64,000 nucleotides of DNA from Candidatus Binatia bacterium (GCA_963664395.2 OY761159.2:2912001-2976000), one strand, 5' to 3'; numbered from the stretch's first letter, positions 33,862-53,961 are shown. Notes: generated from the letters alone by a model not told the origin. Numbers and translations are program-made.

Positions 33862-34209
33862 ATGGAAGACAAAGACCGTCTGGGAACCAAGCTGCAACAA
33901 AAGGAGCGGGCCGAGGAAAGCCACTACTTTGCAGAGCGCGACCGTGAGTTGATCGGCAAGCTGAAGGGGCAACGCGAGGCCGAGCACGAGGCCACGGTGC
34001 GTGAGCTGGCCCTGAACCGCTGCCCCAGGTGCGGGGTGCGGCTGACCACGCGGCTGATCGACGAGGTCGAGATCGACGAATGCGATCAGTGTCAGGGCAT
34101 GTGGCTCGACAAGGGCGAACTGGAAGCCATGTCCAAGCAGAAGGGCAGTCACTGGGTCAAGCAGTTCTTCGACGGCATGGGCCATATCCTGACCGGCCCC
34201 AAAAGCTAG
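33862..34209 (+). CDS. zf-TFIIB Zn-ribbon protein with charged N-terminal helix
   Basis: CPRC...IDECDQCQGMWLDKGELE. Confidence 0.85.
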   Translation: MEDKDRLGTKLQQKERAEESHYFAERDRELIGKLKGQREAEHEATVRELALNRCPRCGVRLTTRLIDEVEIDECDQCQGMWLDKGELEAMSKQKGSHWVKQFFDGMGHILTGPKS

Positions 34210-34213
34210 CCGA

Positions 34214-37181
34214 CTAGGAGAGTCCGACGCTCACCCCTACGAACCAATACCGGCCCAGGCCGTCATACAGGCCGGGGAAGGTGTTGCCGTTGCCGGCGAA
34301 AGAGGGCCCTGCCGCGTTGCCCGCCAGCGGCGGGGCCTTGTCGAACAGGTTGTTCACGCCGACGCGCAGGCTGGTGTATTCATTGTAATTCCAGATAGCG
34401 GCCAGGTCGAAGTAGTGCCGCGCCCCGAGATCGACCTGGGTGGAGTTGAGATCTTCGACGCCGCCGATGTAGCGCCACATGAGACTGGGCCGCAGCCCCC
34501 ACGGTGTCACCCAGGTGGCGCGCAGATTGTTCCGAATATCCGGGGTCGGAAAACCGCAGGTGGCCCCCCAGTTGCCGGCGCAGTCTACCTTGCGCGCCCC
34601 TTGCAACTCCTGCTGGTCCCAGGTGGAGGTGATCGACAGGATGTCGCTGAAGCGCAGCCGCCCCCAGCGGCCCATTCCTATGACACTAAGCGGGAGGTCA
34701 TAGCCGACGGTGAGGTCGTAGCCCTGCACTTCCTCGATGGCCAGGTTGTCCAGCAGGGACACGATGCGACCGCTGTTGTCGATGTCGGAGCCCAGCCACA
34801 GGTCGCCGCTCCGCCCGCGTCTGACCTTGGCGCACTGCGAGGCGTTGCCGTCCAGACATTCGTTGAGGATGAACTCCGGCGTCAGGGTGCTGATGCCTTT
34901 GCTGATCTCGATCGAATAATAGTCCAGGCTGAGGTTGAAGCCGGGGATAAAGCCGGGCGTCCACACCAGGCCGAAGGAGTAGGTATCCGATTCCTCCGGT
35001 GCCAGGTCAGGGTTGCCGCCTTGCAGAAAATTGTACTGGGCCGCCGGGGAATTTTCGATGTTACCGAACTGGCTCGCGGTCACGCCGCTGCGGGCGCAGT
35101 CCTCAAGGCTGCGGCCCTCGGCCGTCCTGCCGTTGGCGACAGGCCCGGCACACGGGTCGGCGTTCATCTCGAACAGATTGAAGCCCTGCGGCAGGAAGCG
35201 TTCCCGCATACTCGGTCCGCGAATCGCCCGCTGGAAACTGGCCCGCAGTCTGAGGTCGGCATTAATGGCCCAGCCCGCGCGGACCCCAAAGGTATTGGTC
35301 TGCTCGCCGTAATCGTAGTCGGAATAGCGATAGCCCCCATCCAGACCGAGTTCTTCCACAAAGCGTACGCCGTCGATCAGCGGGAGGCCGGCTTCGATGA
35401 AAAACTCCGTCACGTCGGACCCGCCGCTGACGGGTTGGCTGGCGCCGCCCTGGCCGGCTCCATCGCCGCTGCGGTAGGCTTGGTCGGGTTTGAATTTGAG
35501 ATTGTCGTCGCGGTATTCGCCGCCCAAGACCACGTCCACGCCCGTAGTGGCGAATGGCGACCGGATGCCATAATCGCCGAGATGACCGGCGATATAGCCC
35601 GACACGACCGTCTGGTCGGTCGCTCCGCGGGCGGACAGGGGCAGCGTCAGGTAGTCGGTCATCTCCTGGGTCACCGCGCCCTCCCGAAAGATGTTCCAGG
35701 GGACGCAGTTCGGGTCGGAACCATCCAGCACGGAACGGCAGACAACTCGACCGGTTGCCGGGTCGTGCACCGCGTCCAGCGCCCGCCCGATGCGGGTAAT
35801 CGACAGGTCGTTCAGATAGGTGTTCCGCATGCGGACCTCGGAGTATTGGTAGTGCAGGTCGTAGCGCCAGGTATCATTAGAGGTCGCCGCGCAGACCGAA
35901 CACGCCCCGATAGGAGGTGTGGTGCAGGTCGTTTTGCCGGTTGCCGCCCTCCACATTCCGGCGGCCGATAAAGACCTGCTGGCTGTCATCTCGCGTCAAT
36001 CCATACGCGCCGCACAAGGCTTCAAACTGTTGCTGGGACAGGAATGGATTGCCGCAGCCCAGCGTATCGGTCACAAAAAACGCGCCCGAGGGGGCGATCT
36101 GGGCTACCGAGCGATTGTCCATGAACATGAACTCGGTGTAGGCCTCGACCCGGTCGTGCAGGTCGTAGTGGGCAAACAGGCCGGCGGTCCAGCGCCGGTC
36201 GGGGCGCTGGAAATAGTTCGATGGAGCGTAGTTGAACAGGGTCCCGCGGCGGGGCACGAAGCGGTCGCCCTCCACCTTATAGTCAAAGCTCTCCAGACCC
36301 CGACCTCGCAGCACGCCGAAGTCGGAAAAGGTGCCCTGCGGCTGGGTGGCCGAGCCGGAGCACTCGGTCAGGTCGTTGCTCAGGGCACACGAGCTGTAAT
36401 CGCGGTCGGCCTGGAGCACCGGGTCGATATCGCGGTAGGTGCCGTAGACCGTGACGTTACCGCGCTCCAGGTTTTTGCCCATGATCAGCGAGACATTCGA
36501 GATATCGCCGTCGGATGTTGAGCCCTTGGCGACCTCATAGCCGGCATCTTGGACAATCCGCTGCCACCTGTCGTTGCCGTTGTCGTGCTGGTATTGGCTG
36601 AACTGGTAATCCAGCTTGATGCCCTCGAAATCGTCAACCATCAGAAAGTTGACCACACCGGCGACCGCGTCGGAGCCGTAGGTGGCCGAGGAGCCGCCGG
36701 TCAGCACCTCAACGCTCTTGATCAGCGCGCCCGGAATCTGGTTGATATCGGCGCCGACTCCTCCTTGCAGCGGCGAGCCGGCCGGCAGGCGGCGGCCGTT
36801 GACCAACACCAGGGTGCGTTCCGCGCCCAGGTTGCGCAGATTCAGGGTCGCGGTGCCGGTAGCGCCGTAGGCCTGACTGGCGTTCTGGGCGGAGTACACC
36901 TGCGGCAGGGTGCGCAGCATATCCTCCACCCGGGTGGTGCCCTGGAAGGACAGGTCTTCGGCCTCAATCTGGATGACCGGGCTGGAGCTGACCAGATTTG
37001 CCCTTTGGATACGTGAGCCGGTCACGACTATCGCTTCCAACTCTGACGGCTCTTGGCGCGCTTCAGCCTCCGGCAGTGCGGCGCTCGGCTGCTCGGCATC
37101 TGCGTCCTGGGCACGGGCCGGTGCGGCAGTCAGCAGCAATGCCACCACGACCCCTTTCCATAGCAAAGTTCTTTTTGCCAT
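34214..37181 (-). pseudogene. TonB-dependent receptor interrupted by a +1 frameshift at ~35879
   Basis: ORFs 35877..37181 and 34214..35989 join (GLRGDL / NDTWRY) if one base is removed; collinear with the upstream paralogue. Confidence 0.85.
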
Positions 37182-37214
37182 GAGAACTCCTTTGTTGCCG
37201 CCCGAAGCGCCGGG

Positions 37215-40200
37215 TCAGGAGAGGCCGACACTCATGCCGACGAACCAGTAGCGGCCCAGGGCATCGTACAGGCCGGGGAAGGTGTTGCCACCTCTGCCGG
37301 CTTCACCGACGAGCGGCGGTTCCTTGTCAAACAGGTTGCGGATGCCGATACGCAGGCTGGCGTACTGGTTGACCTCCCAGATCATCGACAGGTCGAAATA
37401 GTGCCGGTCATTCACCGGGATGGGGCGATCCGGGTCGGTCTCCGTGCTGGTACTGATGTAGCGCCACATCAGGCTGGGTTGCAGCCCCCAGGGGCTCAGC
37501 CAGGTGGTCCGCATAATATTGCGGATTCTCGGGGTCGGGGTGCCGCATGAATAGCCCCAACTGCCCGCGCAGGCGATCTTCGGAATATCATCCGTTGCCT
37601 TCAGCGTATATGTATCGAGAAATGAAAGCCGGTTCGTCAAGTTGACAGAGCCGTAGCGACCAAGACTGAGCATATAGTCCACGCTGAAGTCATAGCCGCG
37701 GACGTTGGCGATGGCCAGGTTTTCCAGCACAGCCTGAACATGGCCGGTCGTCTCGATTGTGTTGGAAGACAGCCACAGGTCGCCGCCCGGCCCACGATTG
37801 ACCTTGTCGCACTGCGAGGTTTTGCCGTCCAGGCAGCGGTTCAGGACAAACTCGGGTGACAGGGCGCCGACACCACCCTTGAGTTCGATGGCGTAGTAAT
37901 CCACGCCGAAGGTGAGACCCTCAAGAAAGCCGGGCGTCCAGGTCAGGCCAAACGAATAGGTATCCGCATCTTCGGGAAGCAGGTCAGGGTTGCCGCCGAT
38001 CAGAAAGTTGTACTGACCGGCTGGTGAGTCGGGGATATTGCCGAACTGCTGGGCGGTCACCCCGCTGCGGGCGCACTCCTCAAGGGTGCGGCCGGCAGCG
38101 GTTTTACCGTCAACCACCGCGCCGGCACACGGGTCGGACGACATATAGATCAAGCCCAGCCGCTGCGGCAGGAACTGTTCCCGGATGCTCGGGGCGCGCA
38201 CCGCCCGCTGATAGCTGCCGCGCAGGCTGAGGTCGTGGTTGATGGCCCAGCCGGCCCGCACGCCGTAGGTATCGGTCTGTACGCCGTACCAGGAAGAACG
38301 ATAGCCCCCATTCAGGATCAGTTGGCGCACGAACGGAACGTCTTCGATGAGAGGAATACCGACTTCAAAGAAAACCGCTGGCACGTCGAACCCACCCTTG
38401 AGGGGCTTGGGTGCGCCGCCCACGCCGGTCCCGTCTCCGCTCTGGGTCACCCGGTCGGGCTTGTAGTTCAGATTTTCCTCGCGCCATTCACTGCCCAGCG
38501 CGATATCGAGGCCGGTGGTGGCGAACGGCGACACCAGACCGTAGCGGCCGAGATTGGCCGCGATATGGCCGGACATCACATGCTGGTTCGTGCTGCCGCG
38601 GGTCGTGCGTGTTTGTGTCAGGTAATCGGTCATGTCTTTGGTGACCGCGCCGTCCTCGAAGATGTTCCAGGCCACACAGTTCGGGTCGGCACCGCTCAGC
38701 GCCGAGCGGCAGGCGATGTCTCCGGTCGCGGGGTCGTAGACCGCATCAAGGGCGCGGTTGACCCGGCTGGCCGACATGCCGTTCACGAATTTGCTCAGCG
38801 CGCGCACCTCGGCGTATTGGTAAGACAGATTGTAGCGCCAGACATCGGCAATCTCGCCCCGCAGCCCGAACACGCCGCGATACGAGGTGTGGTGCAGATA
38901 ATCCTTGCGATTACCGCTCTCGACGCTGCGCCGGCCGATATACACATTCTGGATATCCTCTTGCGTCAAGCCGTACTGGCCACACAGGGCCTGAAACTGC
39001 TGATCGGACAGAAACGCATTGCCGCAGTGCAGATCCCTCTGCCTGAAGAACGAGCCCGAGGGAGCAATCTGGGCGGTGGTGCGGTCGTCCATGAACATCA
39101 GTTCGGTATAGGCCTCGACGTATTTGTGCAGGTCGTAATGAGCAAAGGCGCCGGCGGTCCAGCGCGTATCGGGCCGTTGAAAGTGATTCGGGGGCGCGTA
39201 GTTGTAGGGGCGACCGTCCCAGTTCGTGAACTTGTCTCCCTCGACCTGATAGAAGAACGGCGGCCCCGGATTATATCCGGGCCTGACCTTGCGGGTGCCG
39301 AAGTCGGCAAACAGGCCCTTGGGTATCGTGCCCGAGCCGATACACTCGTCAAGACCGGGTGTCAAATCGCAACTGGAGTGATCCCGGTCGCCCAGGAAAA
39401 CCTCTCCGCCGTCACGCCAAGTCGCGTAGGCGGTGATGTTGCCGCGATTGCCCAGGTTTTTGCCCAGGATGAGCGAGACGTTGGACAGCTCGCCGTCCGC
39501 GGTGGAGTCGTCGGCAACGCTATAGCCCTGGCTGGAGATCAGTTTTTTCAGGGCGCGATTGTCATTATCGTGCTGATGCTGACTGAACTGATAATCCAGC
39601 TTGATACCCTCGAAATCGTCGATCAGGATGAAGTTGATCACCCCGGCGACCGCATCCGAACCATAGGTCACCGAGGAGCCGCCGGTCAGGACATCGACGC
39701 GCTTGAGCAGCGCGCCCGGAATCTGGTTGATATCCTCGTTGCCGGTCCCCCCCCAAGGCGAGCCGGCCGGCATGCGGCGGCCGTTGATCAGCACCAGGGT
39801 GCGCGATGAGCCCAGGTGGCGCAGATTCAGGGTTGAGATCCCGCTGGCGCCGTTGGCGTTGGAGGCATCCTGACCGCCGGTAAACACCGAGGGCAGGGAG
39901 CGCACCAGCTCTTCCACCCGGACGGTCCCCTGGTGCAGCAGCTCTTCGGCATCAATGCTGACGATCGGGCCGAGCTCGACCCGGTCGGCCGCCTGCTGGA
40001 GCCGCGAACCGGTGGTCACGATCATCTCTTCCAGGGCCTCCAGTTTCTGTGGCTCTTTGTCGGCTTCGGCCTCAGGCCGTGCGCTAGCTTCGGCTTGCGG
40101 CTGTTCAGTTCCCGGCGGATCGGCGTCGGCTGCGCCGGCCGGTACGGCGGCGAAGGTGATGAGTAATGCTGTTGCTATGGCTCCGGCGAGCTTCAGCCGT

Positions 40201-40226
40201 ACCTCGGTATAGGTGATTACATTCAT
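37215..40226 (-). CDS. TonB-dependent receptor
   Basis: Signal peptide, plug motifs (RTLVLINGRR, YGSDAVAGVINF), barrel motifs (GGNPDL.PE, NLFDKEPP, LGRYWF). Confidence 0.93.
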   Translation of the reverse strand: MNVITYTEVRLKLAGAIATALLITFAAVPAGAADADPPGTEQPQAEASARPEAEADKEPQKLEALEEMIVTTGSRLQQAADRVELGPIVSIDAEELLHQGTVRVEELVRSLPSVFTGGQDASNANGASGISTLNLRHLGSSRTLVLINGRRMPAGSPWGGTGNEDINQIPGALLKRVDVLTGGSSVTYGSDAVAGVINFILIDDFEGIKLDYQFSQHQHDNDNRALKKLISSQGYSVADDSTADGELSNVSLILGKNLGNRGNITAYATWRDGGEVFLGDRDHSSCDLTPGLDECIGSGTIPKGLFADFGTRKVRPGYNPGPPFFYQVEGDKFTNWDGRPYNYAPPNHFQRPDTRWTAGAFAHYDLHKYVEAYTELMFMDDRTTAQIAPSGSFFRQRDLHCGNAFLSDQQFQALCGQYGLTQEDIQNVYIGRRSVESGNRKDYLHHTSYRGVFGLRGEIADVWRYNLSYQYAEVRALSKFVNGMSASRVNRALDAVYDPATGDIACRSALSGADPNCVAWNIFEDGAVTKDMTDYLTQTRTTRGSTNQHVMSGHIAANLGRYGLVSPFATTGLDIALGSEWREENLNYKPDRVTQSGDGTGVGGAPKPLKGGFDVPAVFFEVGIPLIEDVPFVRQLILNGGYRSSWYGVQTDTYGVRAGWAINHDLSLRGSYQRAVRAPSIREQFLPQRLGLIYMSSDPCAGAVVDGKTAAGRTLEECARSGVTAQQFGNIPDSPAGQYNFLIGGNPDLLPEDADTYSFGLTWTPGFLEGLTFGVDYYAIELKGGVGALSPEFVLNRCLDGKTSQCDKVNRGPGGDLWLSSNTIETTGHVQAVLENLAIANVRGYDFSVDYMLSLGRYGSVNLTNRLSFLDTYTLKATDDIPKIACAGSWGYSCGTPTPRIRNIMRTTWLSPWGLQPSLMWRYISTSTETDPDRPIPVNDRHYFDLSMIWEVNQYASLRIGIRNLFDKEPPLVGEAGRGGNTFPGLYDALGRYWFVGMSVGLS

Positions 40227-40262
40227 TCACGCGCATGTAGGCCACCAATGGATATTTGTCAA

Positions 40263-41933
40263 TCACGGAGGAGGGTTCGATGAATTGAGCGCCTCCGACT
40301 TGGCAATCTTGGTGATTGCCGCATTGGAGAATTGCGCATGAAAACCCAATAATTCCCCGTCCTTACCGCACCGCGCCTCACGGCGCAGTTCGACCCAGGT
40401 CGTGAGGGCCATCCCGATGAGGACCAGGGTGAACGGGAAGCCCGCCGCGAGCGCTGCGGTCTGCAATGCCTGTAGACCGCCACCGAGCAGGAGGGCAATG
40501 GCGACCAGCCCTTCGAGCACGCACCAGAACAGGCAGCGCCCAACCGGAGCGTTGAAATTGCCGCCGGCGGTGATGGTCGCGACGACCAGCGAGCCGGAGT
40601 CCGATGAGGTGACGAAGAAGATGACGATCAGGACGAGAGCGACGACCGAAAGCGGACCTGTCAGCGGCAGGGGTTCGAGCATTTTGAACAGCGCCAACTC
40701 CGGTGTCCAGGCGGTCACGGTATCGATCACGCCGGTGTAGCCGTCGGTGAGATATTGGTGGACGGCGGTCCCGCCAAAAGCACTCATCCACAACAAACCG
40801 AACAGCGTCGGCAGGAGGAGGACGCACAATAGGAACTCGCGGACTGTCCGGCCCCTGGAAATGCGGGCGATGAAAATACCGACGAACGGTGCCCAGGCCA
40901 GCCACCAGGCCAGGTAGAAGGTGGTCCAGTCGTGCAGGAAGGCGGTGTCCTGTCGGCCGACCCAGTTGCTGAGCGGCACAATTTCGGTCAGGTAGGTGCC
41001 CAGCCCGCTGAAGAAACCGGCCCAGATATAGAGGGTCGGTCCGATCCCGATAATGCACACCAGCAGCCCCACCGCCAGAATCGCGTTCAACTCGCTGAGA
41101 CGCTTGATGCCGACATTGATCCCGGTCAGCACCGAGCCTGTCGCCACGGCGGTGATCAGCACAATGAGCACCACCCTGGTGAGGTCGGTGGCCGGAATCC
41201 CGAACAGATAATTGAGACCGCCCGTCACCTGATTGGCACCCAGGCCGAGCGAGGTAGCAAGCCCGAACACGGTCGTAAAGACGGCCAGCGTATCAATCAG
41301 GTGGCCGGCCCAGCCCCAGATGCGGTCACCGAGCAGGGGATAGAAGGCCGAGCGAATAGTGAGCGGCAGGCCCCGGTTATAGCTGAAGAAGGCCAGGGCG
41401 AGGCCCACAAGCGCGTAGATGGCCCAACCGTGCAGACCCCAGTGAAAAGTCGCCGCGGCGATGCCGAGGGCGCGAGCCGTCTCGGGGTCGGCGGCATTAA
41501 TACCGAGCGGGGGATGCAGAAAGTGTTGGACCGGCTCCAGCACCCCGAAGAACATCAGCCCAATGCCTATGCCGGCGGCAAAGAGCATCGCCAACCAACT
41601 GACAGAGGAGTACTCCGGGACGGCCTCTCGTCCGCCGAGCCGCACCTTGCCGAGCGGGGAGACAGCCAGACACAGGCAGAACAGCAGGACAAAGTTGGCG
41701 GTGAGCAGGAACAGCCAGTCGAACTGAGTGGTGAGCCAGATCCGAATACCCCCAAAGACCAGTGTCGCTCTTTCCGGGAACAGCAGCGTGCCGAGGACAA
41801 AGACGATGATGGTGAGTGCGGAAACCGGGAAGACCGCCTTGTCGATATCCGGACCCGATATCCGGGTATTGCTCCGCCCGCTCCCGTAGCCGGGTCCGTC
41901 GTCCTGCCGCGCGTGTTGGTCCACTTGGCTCAT
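40263..41933 (-). CDS. BCCT family (betaine/carnitine/choline) transporter
   Basis: SWLAMLFAAGIGIGL, FHWGLHGW, WAPFVGIFIARISRGRTVREF, FFVTSSDS. Confidence 0.94.
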   Translation of the reverse strand: MSQVDQHARQDDGPGYGSGRSNTRISGPDIDKAVFPVSALTIIVFVLGTLLFPERATLVFGGIRIWLTTQFDWLFLLTANFVLLFCLCLAVSPLGKVRLGGREAVPEYSSVSWLAMLFAAGIGIGLMFFGVLEPVQHFLHPPLGINAADPETARALGIAAATFHWGLHGWAIYALVGLALAFFSYNRGLPLTIRSAFYPLLGDRIWGWAGHLIDTLAVFTTVFGLATSLGLGANQVTGGLNYLFGIPATDLTRVVLIVLITAVATGSVLTGINVGIKRLSELNAILAVGLLVCIIGIGPTLYIWAGFFSGLGTYLTEIVPLSNWVGRQDTAFLHDWTTFYLAWWLAWAPFVGIFIARISRGRTVREFLLCVLLLPTLFGLLWMSAFGGTAVHQYLTDGYTGVIDTVTAWTPELALFKMLEPLPLTGPLSVVALVLIVIFFVTSSDSGSLVVATITAGGNFNAPVGRCLFWCVLEGLVAIALLLGGGLQALQTAALAAGFPFTLVLIGMALTTWVELRREARCGKDGELLGFHAQFSNAAITKIAKSEALNSSNPPP

Positions 41934-42013
41934 GCCTTCCTCCCCCCGCTACGGATTTGGCGCTCAGATTGTAACTCTTCAGACGGCGCATTGATATGCG
42001 CAGGGCGGAAGAG

Positions 42014-42078
42014 GCTTGTCACGGCAGGAGGCGCAGGCCGATATACACCAGGGTGAAGACCGTCAGAAAGACGATTCC
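42014..42078 (-). repeat. Imperfect direct repeat, left copy: orphan 3' end of the NRAMP-like transporter gene
   Basis: Minus strand of 42019-42078 reads GIVFLTVFTLVYIGLRLLP*; 51/60 identical to 46001-46060. Confidence 0.9.
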
Positions 42079-42086
42079 AGTGTCAG

Positions 42087-42517
42087 GTTGTGGATTGCGG
42101 ACAGACCTTGGTGAGTTACACTCGCCTGCTCTGCGTCCGATATCTCCCCGTCGTTGTGGATTGCGGACAGACCTTGGTGAGTTACACTGTTCAGCGCCCG
42201 CACCTTACACCGGCAGTTGTTGTGGATTGCGGACAGACCTTGGTGAGTTACACTACTCGTACAGGAGATAGCGACCAGCCACGGGTTGTGGATTGCGGAC
42301 AGACCTTGGTGAGTTACACTGCCTGACCGCGCACACCGGCACGTCTGAATGTTGTGGATTGCGGACAGACCTTGGTGAGTTACACTAGGAAACCATACGA
42401 GGCTGAGCGAATCCCGTTGTGGATTGCGGACAGACCTTGGTGAGTTACACTTATCGAAGAAACGATGAACGCACGCGCTGCGTTGTGGATTGCGGACAGT
42501 CCTTGGTGAGTTACACT
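42087..42517 (+). CRISPR. Type II-C CRISPR array, 7 repeats (36 bp) and 6 spacers (29-30 bp)
   Basis: Repeat GTTGTGGATTGCGGACAGACCTTGGTGAGTTACACT starts at 42087, 42153, 42219, 42285, 42351, 42416 and 42482 (last has one A>T). Orientation inferred from tracrRNA complementarity. Confidence 0.98.
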
Positions 42518-42567
42518 GTCCCCGACGCAACCTGCTGGAATCGTGGCGATTTCGCCCTCCAGATTGA

Positions 42568-42666
42568 TTACAAAAGTTCAATCCGGAGGGGCGCGGGCTC
42601 AGGAGGCTTGCGCTTTTTCCCATAGAAAACCTGGATTCTGCCAAACTGTTTGTCGGTAATCTTGAT
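42568..42666 (-). pseudogene. cas2: cas2 3' remnant
   Basis: Translates IKITDKQFGRIQVFYGKKRKPPEPAPLRIELL*, matching the type II Cas2 C-terminus (ITDKQF...ELF-like). Confidence 0.8.
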
Positions 42667-42703
42667 AAGCTGCCTCACTGATATCAACGCTTCGCTTAAT
42701 CAT
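42665..42703 (-). pseudogene. cas1: cas1 5' remnant
   Basis: ATG overlapping the cas9 3' end; MIKRSVDISEAAY resembles type II-C Cas1 N-termini. Confidence 0.75.
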
Positions 42704-45700
42704 TTCGCAACTTCCCGATGGCATTCACAAGATGTTTTTTCATCGCGTAATCGTGCATCAACGGCGATACGGCCTTCTCCAGTTGTTCTGCACTATTCTT
42801 CCCAGCCGCTACAGTGTGGTGTTGGAGCCCAACTCTACTATTGGTGTACTCAAGTTTTTGGACTCGGTAGAACTGCCTCTCACCGTCTACTTCAACGCTG
42901 ACCAAGTCGTTGATATGTAACGCCATCACGAATTCATACGCTTCGCCGTGGTCGGTCTGAATGACCGGACGTTTCGAGCCGTTGATCCCTCTGGCGCGGT
43001 GGGCGGCTTCCATCGCGGTGACAAATCTCCCTTCATACTTTCCGGTTGCTTGGTGACGGATAATTTCGGCATGATGTGTATTGCCATACGCCATCCACCT
43101 GAACACCTTCCCCTGACGGTCACGTACCCCGAACTTGGTTTTTTTCAGGGTGTCCAAATCGAGGACTTTTAACTGCCGGACCCGGACCCTCTTGATGGGA
43201 GTCGTACCATTCTTGTGAACGACCCTCTTGTCGTCTGCGAAAGCCTGTTTTGGATCATTATCATGGTTCTCCAGATGCGCTCGGACCTGCTGCCGGACCA
43301 CGGGATCGATAATTTTGTCAACCCACGTGACCTTGAAATCCGTATTCAGGACTTGGCGATAGACTGTTCCCGGTCCGTCAACACCGTTGCCCGCGATGAA
43401 CCCGACTCCCGTTTCTTCGTGTAATGCGCCGCTGATCTTCCGTTGCGGGACGTGAGAGACAATCAGCGCTTGGAGTTGGTTGTGCACATCCTGCCTGAAG
43501 GTTTGCCACGGAATATCTATGCGTATATCTCGCAGATTGAGTTCCGAGTGGGAACGTTCGAGTTGCTTGGCCCGCCTCGCCAAACGCTGATGAAAGCCAC
43601 GGTCAATGCAGGCGATGACAGCAGCATCAATGGCGTGGTGGCGATGGTCTGTCCGTTCCTTCTCAGCGCTCGTGCCTATCAGGCTGTTCAAGCCCCATTG
43701 ACGACGGAGCCAACCGGTGAATGCCGCCTTGGGAAACGTGACATCAACTCCCAGGGCGCTCAGATAACGGCCTGCTTCCCGACTGATATAGCGAGTGTCG
43801 GTAAGCTGACTGCCGATAAAGTCTCTGTTTTGTAGCTCGGCTTCTTTCTTGTAGAAACGCTCCCGCTTGGACTTGAGGCTCTTGCCCCAACGACTGATGG
43901 TCTGGGTAATCTGATTCCACTTGTCCCCATTGCTACCGAAGGCGTCCATAGGCGTGCGATTGCGTTTGTCGCGGTTTTCCTCCGTATAGCAAACGACCTT
44001 GTTCATATAGGAGTCGTCCAGCGTCAGGCTGTAAGGCAGGATGTGGTCAATCTCAACCGCTGGCCCGAACAGTTCGGATAAAATGATCTGCCTTCCGCTG
44101 TAGGCGCACTTCTCTTCCTGGTCTTTCCACAGGCGATATTTCAGCTTGTCGCTTCGACTCGGATTTTCGGACAAGCCGAGATGTGCGTTTTTCTGGCGCA
44201 TCTCGGCGTACTTCTGAGCGGCTTCCTCATTGGCCTTGGTGTTCGCATTTTGCTGTTTGCGGAAGGCGGCATATCGCTTGGTATTCATCTCCAGATCGCG
44301 GGCCATTTCAATGCGAACCGCGTCCGGCTTGCCGTACTCGGCAATAACGGCATTCACCACCCGGCGTAGTTCGTGCAATCCTTTTTGCACTATGGGATTG
44401 GCTATTGTTGGCGGCGGGCCAAGACGGTCTTGCGCTGTGATGGATTCTGGTTCGTACCCGTAGCCCACTTCAACACGGGCATCAGAGAGAATTTTTCCCT
44501 GTTCCAGGTAGGGCAGCAGCTTGCGAACAGCTTTGGTCGAAAAATTGCCGTGACCCGGCTCGAACTCCACCATGCAGAGACGTACCGCAGTTGTGGAATC
44601 AAACTGCCAGTGACCTATAAGTCGCTTTTTCAATACGGATTTTTTCTGGATAGTCAGTAGGTCTTCCGCGAGAGCATATTGTTTGTCCCCGGAAAATGCG
44701 TCCCATTCGGGCAGTACCTTACGTATCGCGCAGGCGGTCGTGTTGCCTTTGAGCTTTTTGACTTCGGATCTTTCCAGGTTGAACTCGGTCGTCCGAGCCA
44801 GCCCAAGAGCTTTACGCAATCTGGCAAAAGTGAGCACCGGCGTGTTCTCAAACAGTGTGGCCAAGAGAGCACGGTCTTCATCGCTGAGCGTGCTCCAGGT
44901 TTCTGTATACGAATCAAAGAATTGGAGATTGTTGATGTCCTGGAGGTAACGGAACTTCTGATATTCCAAACGGGCAATTCTCGCTCGTGTGCATCGTGGC
45001 TCTAAGGAACATTTCCCTACTCGGTCATCCTGAAGCTTGAGCGGACGCTGATGGAAAATAATCTGCTCTATTTGTTCCTTTACCGTATCCGTCAACACCG
45101 TGTGGTGCTTTTTCTGTTCCTCCCAAATGGCGTCCAACTCCTCCCGGTACATTTGCCGGTCGGTCCGCAGATGTCCTCCGTCTCGCTGCCGGTTACGCTT
45201 GCTTTGAAGAGGCTCCAGCGAAGAGAGATATTCACCCAGGGTGCGACAACCGGATTTTTTGATCTTTTCTCGCAGATCACTGGTGTCTTTTTTGAACGCA
45301 GTCTCTTCTTTTTCTTCGTCCGTAATGTCGGTCTTGCCATCGGCATTGTCCTCGTCCAACTCGGCCAGAACTGCCTGCACGTCCGGGTCGTCCAACATCT
45401 CCTGACCCAGCAGCGTTTTACGGTTGCTGAGAAACCCCCGTCGTTGCACGAGGTGGAGAAGAACGCGCCCGAGTTCGTGTACACTCAGGGGGGAATCCAG
45501 CGCTTTGGCGCGGAGGGAGTACGGCTCTCCAAGCTCATTCAGAACGCTCTCCGGTTTCGGATGGTCTTTGAGACTGGTCGGCAGCAGATTCAGACTGACC
45601 AAGTAGTTCAGCATCCGTTGGCGGCGTCTGGCGCGTCGCTGCACTACGCGTCTTGCTAATCGGCTGTTACGACGCTTTTGATTCTTAGGCGTTGGTGTCT

Positions 45701-45836
45701 TATCTTCGACGGCTTTATTGAATATGCGCGAGCCGAGATCAATTAACCCGGTTGGTTTCCCAGCGTCGGTTGTTTTGAGGAGCGCCCAGCCTATGGAATT
45801 TGATCCTAAATCCAGTCCCAGAATGTGCTTGCTCAC
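42696..45836 (-). CDS. cas9: Type II-C Cas9 endonuclease (1046 aa)
   Basis: RuvC-I LGLDLGSNSIGWA, Arg-rich bridge helix, RuvC-II IEMARD, HNH EIDHILP..NKV...N, RuvC-III HHAIDA; GTG start with GGGAG RBS. Confidence 0.97.
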   Translation of the reverse strand: MSKHILGLDLGSNSIGWALLKTTDAGKPTGLIDLGSRIFNKAVEDKTPTPKNQKRRNSRLARRVVQRRARRRQRMLNYLVSLNLLPTSLKDHPKPESVLNELGEPYSLRAKALDSPLSVHELGRVLLHLVQRRGFLSNRKTLLGQEMLDDPDVQAVLAELDEDNADGKTDITDEEKEETAFKKDTSDLREKIKKSGCRTLGEYLSSLEPLQSKRNRQRDGGHLRTDRQMYREELDAIWEEQKKHHTVLTDTVKEQIEQIIFHQRPLKLQDDRVGKCSLEPRCTRARIARLEYQKFRYLQDINNLQFFDSYTETWSTLSDEDRALLATLFENTPVLTFARLRKALGLARTTEFNLERSEVKKLKGNTTACAIRKVLPEWDAFSGDKQYALAEDLLTIQKKSVLKKRLIGHWQFDSTTAVRLCMVEFEPGHGNFSTKAVRKLLPYLEQGKILSDARVEVGYGYEPESITAQDRLGPPPTIANPIVQKGLHELRRVVNAVIAEYGKPDAVRIEMARDLEMNTKRYAAFRKQQNANTKANEEAAQKYAEMRQKNAHLGLSENPSRSDKLKYRLWKDQEEKCAYSGRQIILSELFGPAVEIDHILPYSLTLDDSYMNKVVCYTEENRDKRNRTPMDAFGSNGDKWNQITQTISRWGKSLKSKRERFYKKEAELQNRDFIGSQLTDTRYISREAGRYLSALGVDVTFPKAAFTGWLRRQWGLNSLIGTSAEKERTDHRHHAIDAAVIACIDRGFHQRLARRAKQLERSHSELNLRDIRIDIPWQTFRQDVHNQLQALIVSHVPQRKISGALHEETGVGFIAGNGVDGPGTVYRQVLNTDFKVTWVDKIIDPVVRQQVRAHLENHDNDPKQAFADDKRVVHKNGTTPIKRVRVRQLKVLDLDTLKKTKFGVRDRQGKVFRWMAYGNTHHAEIIRHQATGKYEGRFVTAMEAAHRARGINGSKRPVIQTDHGEAYEFVMALHINDLVSVEVDGERQFYRVQKLEYTNSRVGLQHHTVAAGKNSAEQLEKAVSPLMHDYAMKKHLVNAIGKLRND

Positions 45837-45864
45837 GTATCGTCTCCCGTGTATATTCCTCGGC

Positions 45865-45970
45865 AGTGTAACTCACCAAGGCCTGTCGTCAGCTCTTCAT
45901 ACCAAAGAAGTTGTTTCTTCGCAGGCAACGCTTTCAAGCGACCAGAGCCCTCCCAGTGGGGGCTTTTTTT
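45865..45970 (+). ncRNA. tracrRNA
   Basis: AGTGTAACTCACCAAGGCCTGTC is 22/23 identical to the reverse complement of the repeat 3' part; followed by hairpins and a GC stem with T7; TATATT -10-like element at 45852. Confidence 0.9.
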
Positions 45971-45995
45971 ATTCTCTATGGTTGTCGGCGGTGAC

Positions 45996-46060
45996 GCTTG
46001 TTACGGCACCAGCCGTATGCCGATATACACCAGGGTAAAGACCGTCAAAAAGACGATACC
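45996..46060 (-). repeat. Imperfect direct repeat, right copy (functional 3' end of the transporter gene)
   Basis: Encodes GIVFLTVFTLVYIGIRLVP*; partner of 42014-42078. Confidence 0.9.
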
Positions 46061-47311
46061 GGCCCAACTCAGCAGCCGCAGCCAGGGCGGAGGGTGGGCG
46101 GCGGCTGGCACATGGGGGCTGAGGACGAGCCGATGGTTGGCCAGGGCAATAATCGGCGCGACCAGAAATGAGATAACGGTGGCCAGGTCGATGAGCGTGG
46201 TAAAGCTGGTGAGAAACAGCGCAATAATCAGATAGCCGCCAACCGCGCCAATGACGAGCCAGACGTTATACACTGTGCGGCTGTCCTGTCCGTCCTGGCT
46301 CCGAGAAAACAATAATGCCCAGGTGCGGTCCATGGCCCTGGCATAGCCGTCAAAGATGACCAGGGCGGTGCCAAACATGACGGAAAAGGCCGAAGAGGCG
46401 ATGATGATATAGCTCCAGTCCCCGAGCGTTGCGGTGTAGAGCCGAATCACCTCATGCGTGAACTGTGTCCCGCTCTGGTTTGAGAATGACTGCCCGGAAC
46501 CGTACATGATGAACGCCCCCAGCGTCATGAAGCAGACGGCCAGAAACGCCGTCATCACATACGCGACATTAAAGTCGAGCAGCGTCTCGCGCAGGGTCGG
46601 CCGGTAGCCGGTCTGCTTGAAGCGTTCAAGCGTCCAGAGGCTGTTGAGGGCGGATAAATCCAAGGGAGCCGGCATCCAGCCCATGAGGGCAATCAGAAAG
46701 GCAAAGCCCGAGGCGGTCCAGACCTCGGACGAGTAGAAGGCCACCGGCGCGGTCGGACCGCGCAAGAGGGTCAGAACAAAAGCGGTCAGGGTGGAGAGAA
46801 ACAGTACTGTACAAATGACCTTGATGAGGCGGTCCAGGGTGCTGTATTTTCCGACCAGCAAAATGCTGACGCAGCCGACGATCAGGAACAGGGCGGTGTG
46901 GATAACCGGCAGGTCGAGGCCGAGCAGGTTGTTCAGCAGTCCGGCGGTGGTAAAACAGATGGCCGCGATAATAATGGACATCGGGCTGACCGTAATAAAC
47001 AAATAGAGATATAAGGCCCAGTTCCCGAAACGCTTATAGCCATCGATCAGGCTTTCGCCGGTCGCGTTCGCATAGCGCGAGCCGTACTCAAAGGACGGAT
47101 ATTTCAGGAGATTGGCAAGAATAACCGCCCACAGCAGCGCATAGCCATAGTCGGCCCCGGCGCGGGTTGACTGCACTAAATGTGAGACGCCAATGGCGGT
47201 GCTGGCAAAGAGCAGGCCCGGCCCCAGGGTTTTGAGCAGGCGGGAGCGCTGGCTGTCTTCTTCTTTCGGGGCGGTTGTCTCCATAGGAGCAGTCGCTTGT
47301 GTGTTTTCCAT
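46001..47311 (-). CDS. NRAMP-like/APC superfamily membrane transporter
   Basis: LGPGLLFASTAIGVSHLVQSTRAGA, ALMGWMPAP, about 11 TM segments. Start moved to ATG 47311. Confidence 0.82.
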   Translation of the reverse strand: MENTQATAPMETTAPKEEDSQRSRLLKTLGPGLLFASTAIGVSHLVQSTRAGADYGYALLWAVILANLLKYPSFEYGSRYANATGESLIDGYKRFGNWALYLYLFITVSPMSIIIAAICFTTAGLLNNLLGLDLPVIHTALFLIVGCVSILLVGKYSTLDRLIKVICTVLFLSTLTAFVLTLLRGPTAPVAFYSSEVWTASGFAFLIALMGWMPAPLDLSALNSLWTLERFKQTGYRPTLRETLLDFNVAYVMTAFLAVCFMTLGAFIMYGSGQSFSNQSGTQFTHEVIRLYTATLGDWSYIIIASSAFSVMFGTALVIFDGYARAMDRTWALLFSRSQDGQDSRTVYNVWLVIGAVGGYLIIALFLTSFTTLIDLATVISFLVAPIIALANHRLVLSPHVPAAAHPPPWLRLLSWAGIVFLTVFTLVYIGIRLVP

Positions 47312-47491
47312 ACAAAGCCTGGTATGACAATTGTGTGACTGAGGGTTGCAGCAGAGAAACATGACTCTTTCTTGTGTGTCAAGAAGAAGTGGTTGGACTG
47401 CGCTGCCCTTGAGAGGAGAGTTTCCTATGGAAGAGGGGGCTTCCTTTACGGGAACGCCTTTGCGCATAGCAACCCGATAATCGAGCGCCGC

Positions 47492-48877
47492 ATGGATCTT
47501 TCCGCTATCCTCCAAACGATTCCTCACTATCAGGAGTTCCTGACCCTGGAAGAACTGCGTCAAAGTTCCGTCCAACTCGTTGAAGAATTCCCGAACATTG
47601 CTCAACTCGAAAAAATTGGGATATCCACTGACGGACGTCCGATTGAGTTGTTAACCATCGGCTCTGGAACCCGGCACGCGCTTTTCCTTGGAGTGCCGCA
47701 TCCCAACGAACCTATTGGGACGCTGAGTCTGGAATTCCTGAGTCGTTTACTGTGCGAGCAGGACGACCTCAGAGCAGAGCTTGACTACACTTTCCTCATT
47801 GTCAAAGCCATTGATCCCGATGGCTTGGTCCTCAACGAAGGCTGGTTGAAGGGAGAGTTCTCTCCGCTTCAGTATGCCCTCAACTACTACCGCTGCACGG
47901 CCCGGGAACAAGTTGAGTGGGGCTTTCCGATTGACTATAAGACGCTGCATTTTTCCTCGCCATCTGCCGAAACCCAGGTGGTTATGCGGCTGATGCAGGC
48001 GTATCGGCCCCGTTTTTGTCACTCGCTGCATAACGCAAGTTTTTGTGGTGTCTATTTTTACGCCACCCGGAATTGCCCGGAACTGTTCACTCAGTTTCAC
48101 GAACTCGTCGCCGGCCAGGGCCTCCCGCTGCATCACGGTGAACCAGAGGTGCCGTATATCCAACCCTGGACACAGGCCGTGTATCCATTCTTCGGAGTAC
48201 GCGAAGGCTATGACTTCATGGCGCAGCATCTGGACGAAGACCCTGCGCTCTCCATCACGACGGGGACGAGTTCAGCCGATTATTTGAAACAGTACGTCCC
48301 GCAGGCATTGTCGCTCGTGTGCGAACTGCCGTACTTCACCGACCCGGCTATTGCAGATGTCTTGCCGGCAGGTATGTCGCGTCGTGCAGCGCTGCTTGAG
48401 GGACTCCGGCAGGTCGAAGAAATCGTCCAGCTTATTGAAACGCACGTGTCCGCTTTGCAGGCCGGGCTTCCTTCCTCGCGGCTCTCCCGGTCTGTTGCCG
48501 ACTACCTCGACCGAACCCCCAAACGCCTGGCGGCACAGCGGAGACAGCTCGAAGAGATCACGGCATATGCTGAAGAAGCAACCTGTGCGCAGGCCTTTGA
48601 CGCACTCGTCTGCAAGACCTTGCCGCCAACGCTCTATCTGGGCGAAGTATACCGTTTGGCGAAAGAGGGCGGCGAAGAGGGGAGAGCCGCAGAGATTCGT
48701 GGCCACATCGAACAGCAGATCGAACAACTCACGGCCAAGAGCACTCTTCAAGTCCTGCCATTAAAAAAGCTGGTTGCGGTACAAGTTGGAAGTGGGCTAC
48801 TGGCCATGCTACGGAGAGAGACAGAGGCGGACTCAACTGGGCGCATGTCCGAAAAGGGAGGGGAGCCATGGCAGTAG
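47492..48877 (+). CDS. M14 family zinc carboxypeptidase
   Basis: HPNE Zn motif, IDPDG, SLHN, ELPY. Confidence 0.82.
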   Translation: MDLSAILQTIPHYQEFLTLEELRQSSVQLVEEFPNIAQLEKIGISTDGRPIELLTIGSGTRHALFLGVPHPNEPIGTLSLEFLSRLLCEQDDLRAELDYTFLIVKAIDPDGLVLNEGWLKGEFSPLQYALNYYRCTAREQVEWGFPIDYKTLHFSSPSAETQVVMRLMQAYRPRFCHSLHNASFCGVYFYATRNCPELFTQFHELVAGQGLPLHHGEPEVPYIQPWTQAVYPFFGVREGYDFMAQHLDEDPALSITTGTSSADYLKQYVPQALSLVCELPYFTDPAIADVLPAGMSRRAALLEGLRQVEEIVQLIETHVSALQAGLPSSRLSRSVADYLDRTPKRLAAQRRQLEEITAYAEEATCAQAFDALVCKTLPPTLYLGEVYRLAKEGGEEGRAAEIRGHIEQQIEQLTAKSTLQVLPLKKLVAVQVGSGLLAMLRRETEADSTGRMSEKGGEPWQ

Positions 48878-50707: not shown

Positions 50708-51805
50708 TTAAGCCGAGAGTCGCCGGCTGGTATGCAGGTCGCGATACACGAGGGTGGTAGTTTCCTTGGGAGATTCTTGGGCCGCCTTGACGACGATGTC
50801 GTGCTGCGGTGAGAGGCCACACACCGGATCAGCCGCCGCTGCATCGCCAGTCAGCAGAAACGCCTGACACCGACAGCCGCCAAAATCAACGGCTCTTTGG
50901 GCGCAACTCCGACACGGCTCCTGCATCCAGTCTTCGCCCCGATAGGCATTGAGCGCTGGTGAGTCCTGCCAGATCTCAGTCAGCGACTTGTCTTTTACGC
51001 TCTCGAAGGTGAGGTGAGAAATCGCGTGTGCCGCATGGCAGGGTAAGACGACTCCAGTGGGAGTGATGACCATATAGCTGCGTGCCCACCCACCTGAGCA
51101 GGCCTTGGGCCGGTCGCCAAAATAGTCGATTTTGACAAAGACGATTTCCATCGTGCCCCGATAGCGCGTGCGGGCCTCACGGGCGAGCTGCTCTGCTTGG
51201 TCGTACTGCTCTCGGGTCGGCATGAGCGCGCTACGGTTCTCCAACGCCCAGGCGTAGTACTGCGTATTGGCCAGTTCGAGCCGCTGGGCTCCAAGCTCTG
51301 CGGCCTGCCTGATAATCTCTGACACGCGCTCAATATTGAGACGATGCAGGGTGATATTAATCGTGAGAGGAAAATCCAGTTTCCGAATCGATTCCGCACT
51401 GGCTAATTTCTTATCGTACGCGGGCATGCCGGCAATCAGGTCTGCGGTGCGCTGATCGGTGTCCTGTATGCTTAACTGGATATGTTCGAGTCCGGCAGTC
51501 TTCAGTTCCTTGAGCCGGTCTTCGTCCAGCAGGGTGCCGCCTGTTATCAAGTTCGTGTACAGGTCGCACGCCTGGGCATGCTGTACCAGGGGGAGAATAT
51601 CTTTACGAACCAGGGGTTCACCGCCAGAGAGGTGGAGTTGGACCACGCCGAGATCTGCAGCCTCCGTAAACGTCTGACACCACTGCTCGGTGCTGAGCTC
51701 ATCCAGCATGGCGTGGAAATCTACCGGATTAGAGCAATACACACATTTGAGAGGACAACGGTAGGAGAGTTCGGCAACGACAGTGTAGGGACGCGGCGTG
51801 TTCAT
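50708..51805 (-). CDS. pqqE: PQQ biosynthesis radical SAM protein
   Basis: ELSYRCPLKCVYCSNP, ANTQYYAWA, SPASM Cys motifs. Confidence 0.96.
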   Translation of the reverse strand: MNTPRPYTVVAELSYRCPLKCVYCSNPVDFHAMLDELSTEQWCQTFTEAADLGVVQLHLSGGEPLVRKDILPLVQHAQACDLYTNLITGGTLLDEDRLKELKTAGLEHIQLSIQDTDQRTADLIAGMPAYDKKLASAESIRKLDFPLTINITLHRLNIERVSEIIRQAAELGAQRLELANTQYYAWALENRSALMPTREQYDQAEQLAREARTRYRGTMEIVFVKIDYFGDRPKACSGGWARSYMVITPTGVVLPCHAAHAISHLTFESVKDKSLTEIWQDSPALNAYRGEDWMQEPCRSCAQRAVDFGGCRCQAFLLTGDAAAADPVCGLSPQHDIVVKAAQESPKETTTLVYRDLHTSRRLSA

Positions 51806-51817
51806 GCATGACTCCGA

Positions 51818-52141
51818 CTATTGCTCTGGCTTGCTTTCGAGGCCGGTTTCCAAGAGACCACGTTCATGAATGCGGGTGAGTAACTCACCGACATGTTCTT
51901 CAATCTGTTCCCCTTTTGCGTCGGCAAATTGCTCACCCAGCATATCGATAATATCGGAGACGCTTCGTTTGCCGTCACATAGTTTGAGCACTTCGGCCGC
52001 GGTTTGATTGAGCATCAGGGCTGCTTCCGGGAAGATCAGCATGTATTGCTTGTCCACTTTATCCCAGCGCAGCCGCGCTTTTGAGGCAAGACGCGGCTTC
52101 CAGTTTGCCAATGTGTCTAATGTGTCTCGTGCCGTCGCCAT
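51818..52141 (-). CDS. pqqD: PqqA peptide chaperone
   Basis: LIFPE...LNQTAAEVLKLCDG; operon position. Confidence 0.92.
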   Translation of the reverse strand: MATARDTLDTLANWKPRLASKARLRWDKVDKQYMLIFPEAALMLNQTAAEVLKLCDGKRSVSDIIDMLGEQFADAKGEQIEEHVGELLTRIHERGLLETGLESKPEQ

Positions 52142-52169
52142 GCCAACAGTTCCCTTTTATTCAACCTGC

Positions 52170-52928
52170 CTACTCTTCCCAGAACGGTGGTTTCAGGCCG
52201 GGGCTGACGTGCGCATAGTGCATCGCATCAAGCAGACTCCATAAAATATGGCACTTGGTCCGGAGTGCGGCCAGGGCCTGCTCTTGGTGCTCGCGGGTCG
52301 GACAGTTTGTCATCACATACTCGAGGCCGTACTCGACATCGCGCGGGGCTTGCTCGAGCCGGGCGCGAAAATATTCGAGTCCCCGTTTTTCAACCCAAGG
52401 ATAGTGCTCATCAAAGGCCGGCAGCCGTCGGGCCATGAGCGCTGGGGCAAACAGCTCAGTCAGCGAAGACGCGACCGCTTCCATTAAAGAATGATTCTGG
52501 ACGTAGGTGAGATAGGCATCAACCGCAAACCGAACCCCAGGCAACACATAGCGAAAACGAATCATGTCTTCCCGTGAGAGCCCGGCAGCCTCGCCGAGGA
52601 CGAGCCACTTCTCAATACCGCCCGGATCATCGCCCCGGCCGTCATGATCGAGTATACGTTGTATCCATGAACGCCGGACGGCCGGATCGTTGACGCGGGC
52701 CATAATGGCCGCGTCTTTTCTCGGGATCATGCACTGATAGTAAAAACGATTTTCAATCCAGGCTTGGAGCTGACGCGGGGTGAGCCTGCCGGCGTGCATC
52801 AGCCCATGAAAAGGATGTTTGTCATGATAGCCGGCTGCTCCGATTGCCCGCAGCCGTCGGGTGAATTCTTCGGCGCTGAAGACCGCATTATCTGCCCTAT
52901 CCACTTGCCGGTCCGTATTCAGACTCAT
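52170..52928 (-). CDS. pqqC: PQQ synthase
   Basis: YHDKHPFH, NRFYYQ..IPRKDA, RFAVDAY, SSLTELFAP. Confidence 0.96.
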   Translation of the reverse strand: MSLNTDRQVDRADNAVFSAEEFTRRLRAIGAAGYHDKHPFHGLMHAGRLTPRQLQAWIENRFYYQCMIPRKDAAIMARVNDPAVRRSWIQRILDHDGRGDDPGGIEKWLVLGEAAGLSREDMIRFRYVLPGVRFAVDAYLTYVQNHSLMEAVASSLTELFAPALMARRLPAFDEHYPWVEKRGLEYFRARLEQAPRDVEYGLEYVMTNCPTREHQEQALAALRTKCHILWSLLDAMHYAHVSPGLKPPFWEE

Positions 52929-52957
52929 ACCTTGACCCCACCTCGCTCGCCCGGCGT

Positions 52958-53878: not shown

Positions 53879-53961
53879 CCCGTCCTCCTGACTCTCTTGT
53901 CTGTAACCAGGTGGGATCTGCCACAATCGGCAAAGATACCCCTAAAGATGCCCTGCCTGAT

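Follow-up and report, generated by a model that had tools for sequence, protein, structure and literature searches.

A Cas9 locus between two copies of a transporter gene end in Candidatus Binatia: most likely a scar of ordinary recombination

A 64,000-nucleotide (nt) stretch of DNA from a Candidatus Binatia bacterium (GCA_963664395.2 OY761159.2:2912001-2976000), referred to here as the window, contains a CRISPR-Cas9 locus that lies between two diverged copies of the 3' end of an Nramp-family metal transporter gene. This part of the chromosome has been much reshuffled, and the bracket is most likely what ordinary recombination left behind, not the mark of a self-moving Cas9 element. The account that we consider probable, though well short of certain, is that an ordinary chromosomal type II-C locus that has lost cas1 and cas2 sits in a variable slot, and that the bracket around it was produced by general homologous recombination together with one illegitimate join. 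Overall the system is of an ordinary kind and its history is instructive.

An earlier reading of the window, made from the sequence alone (the sequence-only reading), had proposed that two diverged copies of the transporter 3' end bracket the CRISPR module, and pairwise comparison bears this out. Positions 42011-42078 and 45993-46060 are identical at 58 of 68 bases, and their coding parts (42019-42078 and 46001-46060) at 51 of 60, whereas the best 68-nt match in 10 mononucleotide shuffles of positions 40000-48000 was only 36-39 of 68. Translation of either copy yields the C-terminal end of the transporter (GIVFLTVFTLVYIGLRLLP and GIVFLTVFTLVYIGIRLVP, each followed by a stop). Eight codons differ, six of them synonymously (the TGA/TAA stop included) and two conservatively (L/I and L/V), and the GCTTG 3' of the stop is the same in both. 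The longest identical core shared by the copies is at most 18 nt, with 10 of the 68 positions differing. The synonymous or conservative nature of the differences, together with low divergence from native tails, suggests that these are genuine coding alleles of the Nramp tail and not a fresh target-site duplication, as had been supposed. The copies are spaced 3,982 nt apart and enclose a region resembling a trans-activating CRISPR RNA (tracrRNA), cas9, and a seven-repeat array. Eight nucleotides (42079-42086) separate the left copy from the first repeat, which begins at 42087; the right copy starts about 20 nt past the T-run of a plus-strand terminator (45944-45973).

The right copy is the working Nramp end and the left copy is an orphaned Nramp tail. 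The Nramp gene (46001-47311, minus strand; Pfam PF01566, NCBIfam NF037982) encodes 436 amino acids (aa), has homologues of the same length at 95% identity, and has an orthologue in each of nine related loci (L001-L009, described below). Its last 60 nt are the coding part of the right copy (45993-46060, minus strand), which is made up of the functional tail, with its 19 codons and TAA stop, and the next 8 nt; homology of this region to L003, a relative with an empty site, extends to window position 45981. The left copy (42011-42078, minus strand) consists of 19 codons, TGA, and 8 nt, and is joined directly to the upstream region of a BCCT transporter gene (40263-41933, minus strand; Pfam PF02028), as is the native tail in L001. 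The 8-nt filler between the array and the orphan tail (AGTGTCAG on the plus strand) may be a spacer remnant. A promoter in the duplicated tail, kept by selection in front of BCCT, was also considered. TTGACG and TATATC can be picked out by eye 15 nt apart, but a strict sigma-70 scan of 41800-46300 returned no sites, and this candidate is not supported.

A search with the Nramp protein yielded 80 loci. Nine are from Candidatus Binatia, six of them close (92-95% aa identity) and three distant (70-80%), and these were compared in detail. The other 71 (L010-L080, from other phyla, with 48-57% Nramp identity) were screened only for spacer matches, cas9, BCCT, the first TonB-dependent receptor gene (TBDR1), the M14 gene, and the CRISPR repeat. 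BCCT lies directly downstream of Nramp in L003, L006, and L002. In L003 it is followed by TBDR1 and the second receptor gene, TBDR2, and this is the empty site. L006 has the same genes, but BCCT and TBDR1 are separated there by another Nramp tail, which is decayed, and by what is probably a remnant of a repeat. Thus, the suggestion that an insertion had split a transporter-BCCT-TBDR-TBDR run held up, since the uninterrupted order is found in both relatives, and the window BCCT gene is the first of the displaced block.

The remaining close relatives carry traces of the CRISPR locus in several states. In L005, Nramp is followed by the tracrRNA, cas9, a split cas1, cas2, an 11-repeat array, and the last 24 nt of TBDR2. 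This is the only one of the 80 loci with cas9 (81% aa identity to the window), and it lies at the same Nramp end with the same Nramp-side junction, as would be predicted from the expectation that close cas9 homologues adjoin this gene end. In L004, Nramp is followed by 1.4 kb of unrelated DNA, a decayed Nramp tail, decayed and intact repeats, and the TBDR2 stop. L002 has BCCT, an Nramp tail that has decayed, a remnant of 15 nt identical to the cas9 stop and cas1 start of the window, a xanthine/uracil permease gene, DUF1330, a pyrroloquinoline quinone (PQQ) dehydrogenase gene, one degenerate repeat, and TBDR1. The 15-nt remnant (L002 13091-13105) directly follows the second Nramp tail, and therefore cas genes appear to have once stood there and to have been replaced by the permease, DUF1330, and PQQ dehydrogenase genes. 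L001 is like L002 except that everything between BCCT codon ~72 and a point within the permease gene is deleted and that it has a 7-repeat array. The window's repeat, as an array or a solo repeat, was found in 4 of the 80 loci (L001, L002, L004, and L005). The three distant relatives (L007-L009) have no BCCT, TBDR, or CRISPR downstream of Nramp, and L007 and L008 hold other cargo between Nramp and the CoA-transferase gene. The slot between the conserved Nramp and CoA-transferase genes is integrase-free and varies across Binatia.

Short differences at the empty-site junction were also noted. In L003 (11309-11355) and L002 (11309-11355), 42 extra bases, made up of GTCAACGCCGGCAAC and a 9-bp hairpin, separate the Nramp stop from the BCCT upstream region. 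The first 15 nt of these recur after the Nramp tail of the window and of L005 and after the L004 and L006 orphan tails; they are truncated in the L002 orphan, and the 42 bases are absent from L001 and from the window orphan.

Orphan Nramp tails are not confined to the window. Further ones occur in L002 and L006, right after the BCCT stop and attributable to one shared event, and in L004, after the 1.4 kb of unrelated DNA. Their 5' boundaries, counted from the stop, differ, at about -67 in L002/L006 and -82 in L004, against -60 in the window. They also end at differing points, and the duplicated stretches measure about 90, 67, and 68 nt. The bracketed DNA likewise differs, being the CRISPR unit in the window, BCCT in L002/L006, and the unrelated 1.4-kb segment in L004. 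Because the boundaries vary, the bracketed DNA differs, and the window copies have no long identical core, there is no sign of a fixed crossover site.

Genes that might move the module were also lacking. As the sequence-only reading had stated for the interval between the copies, no recombinase was found there, nor in the neighboring genes, in a Pfam scan of 46 open reading frames (ORFs) of the window. The sole integrase-family ORF of the 46 is a XerC/D-like gene at 4707-5636. Transposase and casposase genes, which would mark casposons or transposon-borne RNA-guided nucleases (IscB/IS200-605 and CRISPR-associated transposons), were absent among the scanned ORFs, and there were no tRNA genes in the window. 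Nor were terminal inverted repeats seen, since every long inverted repeat in 40000-48000 pairs a CRISPR repeat with the anti-repeat. Close cas9 homologues were not found on plasmids, where all 63 matching records were below 60% identity and the 8 best reached at most 30.4%, or on phages, where the only one of 3 matching records to cover most of the query had 27.5% identity.

The cassette itself has the features of a type II-C system. The cas9 gene (42696-45836, minus strand) has an intact frame of 1,046 aa and matches TIGR01865 at 667 bits (cutoff, 100) as well as Pfam PF13395 (HNH_4), PF18541 (RuvC_III), and PF18470 (Cas9_a), so that both nuclease domains, the RuvC-like and the HNH, are represented. 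The PDB alignment, in which the closest matches are Cas9 chains of 1,082-1,095 aa, shows the motifs ILGLDLGSNSIGWA, EIDHILPYS, and HHAIDAAV; some of these chains are probably the Nme and Geobacillus Cas9 proteins. Compared with L005 (dN/dS, 0.19, where dN and dS are nonsynonymous and synonymous divergence; dS, 0.55), cas9 is under purifying selection. The protein has 3,368 relatives in the database, of which the named ones, in methanotrophs and Nitrospiria, have about 60% identity, and about 20 closer homologues (P0001-P0021) have 69-94% identity. This Cas9 is a member of a large, little-studied clade.

The predicted tracrRNA (45862-45973, plus strand), recognized by repeat complementarity and terminator prediction, includes an anti-repeat (45865-45887), hairpins, and the intrinsic terminator. 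The 23-26 nt of the anti-repeat are 96% complementary to the CRISPR repeats, and the region is about 95% identical to that of L005, with the changes in predicted loops. The anti-repeat pairs contiguously with repeat positions 14-36 only; in RNAduplex predictions for window 45864-45930, repeat positions 1-11 pair with tracrRNA bases that flank a 28-nt insertion. This suggests a split anti-repeat with unusual pairing geometry. An Rfam search with the tracrRNA and the repeats gave no matches at E values up to 1.

The array (42087-42517, plus strand) has seven 36-nt repeats, the cas9-proximal one with one mismatch, and six spacers of 29-30 nt. The repeat is identical in the window, L001, L004, and L005, and none of the spacers is shared among them. 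None of the 24 spacers of these four arrays matched the window or any of the 80 loci outside its own array, and self-targeting as the source of breaks was rejected. The terminator and hairpins put the predicted tracrRNA on the plus strand; therefore, the CRISPR RNAs would also be on the plus strand, and the array is probably transcribed toward cas9. The repeat ends in a -10-like TACACT; the sigma-70 scan described above found no sites in this region either. In type II-C systems, as described in PMC12080349, every repeat has its own promoter, and new spacers go in at the repeat that is transcribed last. If the rule given there applies, the acquisition side of the window array adjoins a cas2 stub and the orphan tail adjoins the oldest array end.

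The content given by the sequence-only reading for a minimal Cas9 cassette (array, cas9, and tracrRNA) was correct, but the cassette is not minimal by design. It is eroded, with stubs of cas1 and cas2 persisting between cas9 and the array. The cas1 stub (42664-42703, minus strand; recognized by alignment to the L005 cas1 start) comprises the first ~13 codons (~37 nt), with its start overlapping the cas9 stop. The cas2 stub (42568-42668, minus strand; aligned to the L005 cas2 3' end) comprises the last ~33 codons (~100 nt) and is out of frame with the cas1 stub, to which it is fused at a TATC/TTATC microhomology breakpoint. The flank from the cas2 stop to the cas-proximal repeat (42518-42567), where new spacers would be expected to enter, is conserved with L005. 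No intact cas1 or cas2 was found among the 46 scanned ORFs, and the two genes were lost through an internal deletion of ~1.1 kb. Between cas9 and the array, L005 has cas1, cas2, and no csn2 or cas4 ORF; its cas1 matches the type II model TIGR03639 (NMENI type) in two pieces and its cas2 matches TIGR01573. By these features the window locus can be classed as a degraded member of type II-C among the CRISPR-Cas systems. It probably still interferes with its six stored spacers, and it probably cannot acquire new ones because cas1 and cas2 are deleted. In L005 (14562-15478 and 15864-16559), cas1 is present as two overlapping ORFs covering positions 1-149 and 148-277 of the type II Cas1 model, and the array has duplicated spacers, with one spacer present twice in tandem and one two-spacer block present twice.

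In the explanation that we favor, DNA would have been added by RecA-type homologous recombination through the ~70 nt of Nramp tail, with one illegitimate join. One route would be a Campbell-type single crossover of a circularized fragment carrying the tail. Another would be homology-facilitated illegitimate recombination (HFIR) of a linear fragment anchored in Nramp. Both routes would yield the same structure, and neither would require an element-encoded recombinase. What is seen is consistent with insertion by homologous recombination, in that a 68-nt duplication of the anchor end brackets the insert and L003 and L006 have empty sites. There are precedents. In an Escherichia coli system described in PMC3240628, 56 of 60 recombinants had a duplication of the homologous end from a single crossover of a circularized, partly degraded fragment, and 4 were attributed to HFIR. 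An HFIR model is proposed in PMC5361080 for orphan genes downstream of a conserved anchor, and PMC5635113 describes many horizontal-transfer hotspots that are without mobile-element genes and recombine at flanking core genes. Of the origins that the sequence-only reading had put forward, mobilization by homology and the eroded core of something larger fit, the latter in that cas1 and cas2 were deleted; movement by a trans-acting recombinase at an att site does not, given that the orphan boundaries vary and that tails also flank non-CRISPR DNA.

The window duplication looks recent. Measured against the consensus of native tails, the window orphan has 6 differences and 2 bases that occur in no native copy, and the functional copy has 4 and 2. 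In L002, L004, and L006 the orphans show 14-18 differences and 6-14 such bases. The window orphan is thus as native-looking as functional tails. With a dS of 0.16-0.56 between these genomes, it would have left a working gene recently or have been constrained. Which DNA came in is less clear-cut. The Nramp side (tail, 15 nt, and tracrRNA) matches the L005 junction, and the orphan-tail side (tail directly to the BCCT upstream region) matches L001. The incoming DNA may have been either the CRISPR unit or the BCCT-TBDR block. The BCCT-TBDR-TBDR region (34000-42000) has 62-64% G+C, the highest in the window, and the cas9 module (42000-46000) has 53%, among the lowest, around a window mean of 57%; both blocks look like compositionally atypical accessory DNA.

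Several observations weigh against the recombination account. A homologous crossover is proposed rather than seen because no segment was discordant: there was no block with aberrant similarity or dS, L003 being the closest relative throughout, and no clear breakpoint inside Nramp when sliding identity was computed against six and then nine relatives. The L004 Nramp gene keeps its native sequence up to ~15 nt from the stop. The joins offer 2-4 nt of possible microhomology at most, and this is ambiguous. To our knowledge, there is no known route of DNA transfer for Binatia. HFIR was very rare in the E. coli system, at 3.5e-10 per recipient according to PMC3240628. The cas9 dS against L005 tops the range for flanking genes of that pair (0.22-0.46), and it may be that the CRISPR unit is old at the site and only the duplication is recent.

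Two regularities are likewise not what random illegitimate recombination predicts. The first is that three illegitimate joins cluster within ~25 nt of the Nramp tail. This may reflect survivorship, with homology sufficient to integrate and too little for quick re-deletion. The second is that, in two junction types carried by four relatives, the array stops and new flanking DNA starts precisely at the border of a repeat. In L001 and L002 the DNA past the terminal repeat belongs to the BCCT-TBDR1 spacer and begins exactly at the border; in L005 and L004 it begins at the TBDR2 end, the two junctions being 20 nt apart, and extra partial repeats of 11 nt (L005) and 15 nt (L004), copied from the end of the repeat, stand at that border. 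Besides survivorship, CRISPR proteins acting at the repeat border may be a source of these regularities. The cas-distal borders are at L001 14604-14660, L002 17835-17880, L005 16524-16600, and L004 13098-13165. Fragments after the L001 and L002 arrays that resembled a BCCT tail were rejected as such, the real BCCT stop being at window position ~40371 and the longer window ORF resulting from a 5-nt insertion.

One possibility is that the duplication shares the age of the CRISPR locus, which would have entered once in the clade ancestor and descended vertically, the empty sites of L001 and L003 arising from later tail-by-tail recombination. CRISPR traces at the locus in five of the six close relatives (L001, L002, L004, L005, and probably L006) fit such a history, as does a cas9 dS against L005 comparable with that of the flanking Abhydrolase gene (0.46), and the L001 junction between the tail and the BCCT upstream region is the expected product of tail-by-tail deletion. 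However, an orphan that old should have decayed as far as those of L002, L004, and L006, and the window orphan, with changes that are synonymous or conservative, is close to the functional copy in its count of differences. Furthermore, L005 has the CRISPR locus but no second tail, and a simple tail-by-tail deletion would not leave the 42 extra bases of L003. We therefore regard a duplication of that age as unlikely.

It is also conceivable, at rather long odds, that the CRISPR machinery itself makes the joins, through Cas1-Cas2 breaks or nicks at the repeat border or through Cas9 cuts guided by a flank-derived RNA, and that the segment bounded by the Nramp tail and the first repeat can be translocated. 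The flanks that begin at the repeat border in both junction types, the partial repeats beside them, and the recurrence of a unit running from Nramp tail to array in three contexts (after Nramp, after BCCT, and after unrelated DNA) would be explained. Equally improbable is the stronger version, that this segment is a discrete, recombinase-free mobile unit with ends set by CRISPR biology. One of its ends would be a break or nick at the terminal-repeat border and the other the gene tail, serving as portable homology for host recombination. If so, a CRISPR-Cas locus would partly drive its own relocation and the reshuffling of neighboring genes. The clustering of three joins within ~25 nt of the gene tail is compatible with such a unit. 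Yet according to PMC12080349, type II-C spacer addition occurs at the opposite, cas-proximal array end; none of the 24 spacers has a match in the window or in any of the 80 loci; only two or three independent events are on record; and cas1 and cas2 are absent or broken in most of the loci.

We give little credence to a site-specific integrative element in which the tail copies are attL and attR and the module was moved by a tyrosine or serine recombinase whose gene lies outside this region of the genome. A direct repeat of a gene 3' end that brackets an insert and restores the gene is the arrangement of many genomic islands, and the XerC/D-like recombinase gene lies 37 kb away. Nevertheless, the module neither contains nor adjoins a recombinase gene, the orphan tails come with three 5' boundaries and three different cargos, and the copies, which differ at 10 of 68 positions, share no identical core of more than 18 nt. 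The cas1 and cas2 stubs point to passive erosion, and the plasmid and phage records yielded no close cas9.

An assembly chimera, in which strain haplotypes with and without the CRISPR locus were joined, is very improbable. The Nramp-side part does resemble the arrangement of L005 and the BCCT-side part that of L001, and the source is probably a metagenome-assembled genome, as the relatives are. However, the join of array, 8-nt filler, and tail at -60 is not at a sequence common to both haplotypes and thus would give an assembler no overlap, and analogous orphan tails occur in independent assemblies. That the orphan is what remains of a tandem Nramp paralogue lost by deletion is hardly credible, since nothing beyond the existence of the fragment speaks for it, the fragment is allele-like and not paralogue-like, and none of the nine Binatia loci has two Nramp genes within 10 kb, or the full-length tandem paralogues that the sequence-only reading had named as evidence for such an origin.

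The locus under the favored recombination account can be set beside several known systems. It resembles other type II-C systems in a Cas9 of ~1,050 aa with RuvC and HNH domains, 36-nt repeats, 30-nt spacers, an array that adjoins the cas genes, and the NMENI-type cas1 and the cas2 of L005; a reading of the array toward the cas genes, as predicted, and the -10-like end of the repeat would also be compatible with the pattern described in PMC12080349. It differs in the deletion of cas1 and cas2, the predicted split anti-repeat, and a cas-distal array flank that is not conserved among relatives. As in the displacement of type VI secretion system effector-immunity and Rhs orphans by HFIR (PMC5361080), an anchor is conserved, new DNA lies downstream, the old 3' part is displaced as an orphan, and there is no integrase. 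However, the orphans here are 60-82 nt of transporter tail without known function, and the cargo is CRISPR-Cas or transporters and not the toxin-immunity pairs of that account. In Campbell-type integration by a single crossover, as presented in PMC3240628, a direct duplication of the homologous segment likewise flanks the insert and arises by general recombination, but the duplications there are 109-950 bp and those here 67-90 nt. The integrase-free hotspots flanked by core genes of PMC5635113, with which the core defense hotspots of PMC10250203 may be grouped, share a slot with differing cargo, including a defense system, and no mobility genes. When homologous recombination takes place at the two flanks, however, nothing is duplicated, whereas the orphan tails here point to some one-sided events. 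Genomic islands at gene 3' ends share the direct repeat of the gene end around the insert and the intact gene, but here there is no integrase, boundaries and cargo vary by event, and the copies have diverged without a long identical core.

These comparisons present a Cas9 locus without mobility genes that appears to have been gained, moved beside other genes, eroded, and lost in an uncultured phylum. Orphan gene tails of ~70-90 nt could serve as a sequence signature of one-sided recombination in integrase-free hotspots. The stubs that betray erosion here caution against taking cassettes of array, cas9, and tracrRNA as compact mobile modules. The unusual predicted guide-RNA pairing of this Cas9 may be of interest to tool developers. 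Judged by title, none of the papers found on Binatota and CRISPR is about this locus.

Other features of the neighborhood deserve brief mention. The window BCCT gene has its 5-nt insertion, relative to L002, L003, and L006, at 40263-40375; the genes of those relatives end in ...REAL and a stop, and the window frame continues for 36 codons. The second TonB-dependent receptor gene (34214-37181) is present as two overlapping ORFs (35877-37181 and 34214-35989) and is one contiguous frame in L001, L003, and L006; the split in the window is a frameshift or a sequencing error. Between Nramp and a hydrolase gene lies an M14 carboxypeptidase gene (47372-48877) that is also present in the distant relatives L007-L009 and absent in L001-L006. 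A PQQ-biosynthesis-like run at 50708-53926 encodes radical SAM/SPASM, PqqD, PqqC-family, and metallo-beta-lactamase-fold proteins, and PQQ-dependent dehydrogenase genes are among the variable cargo in L001 and L002.

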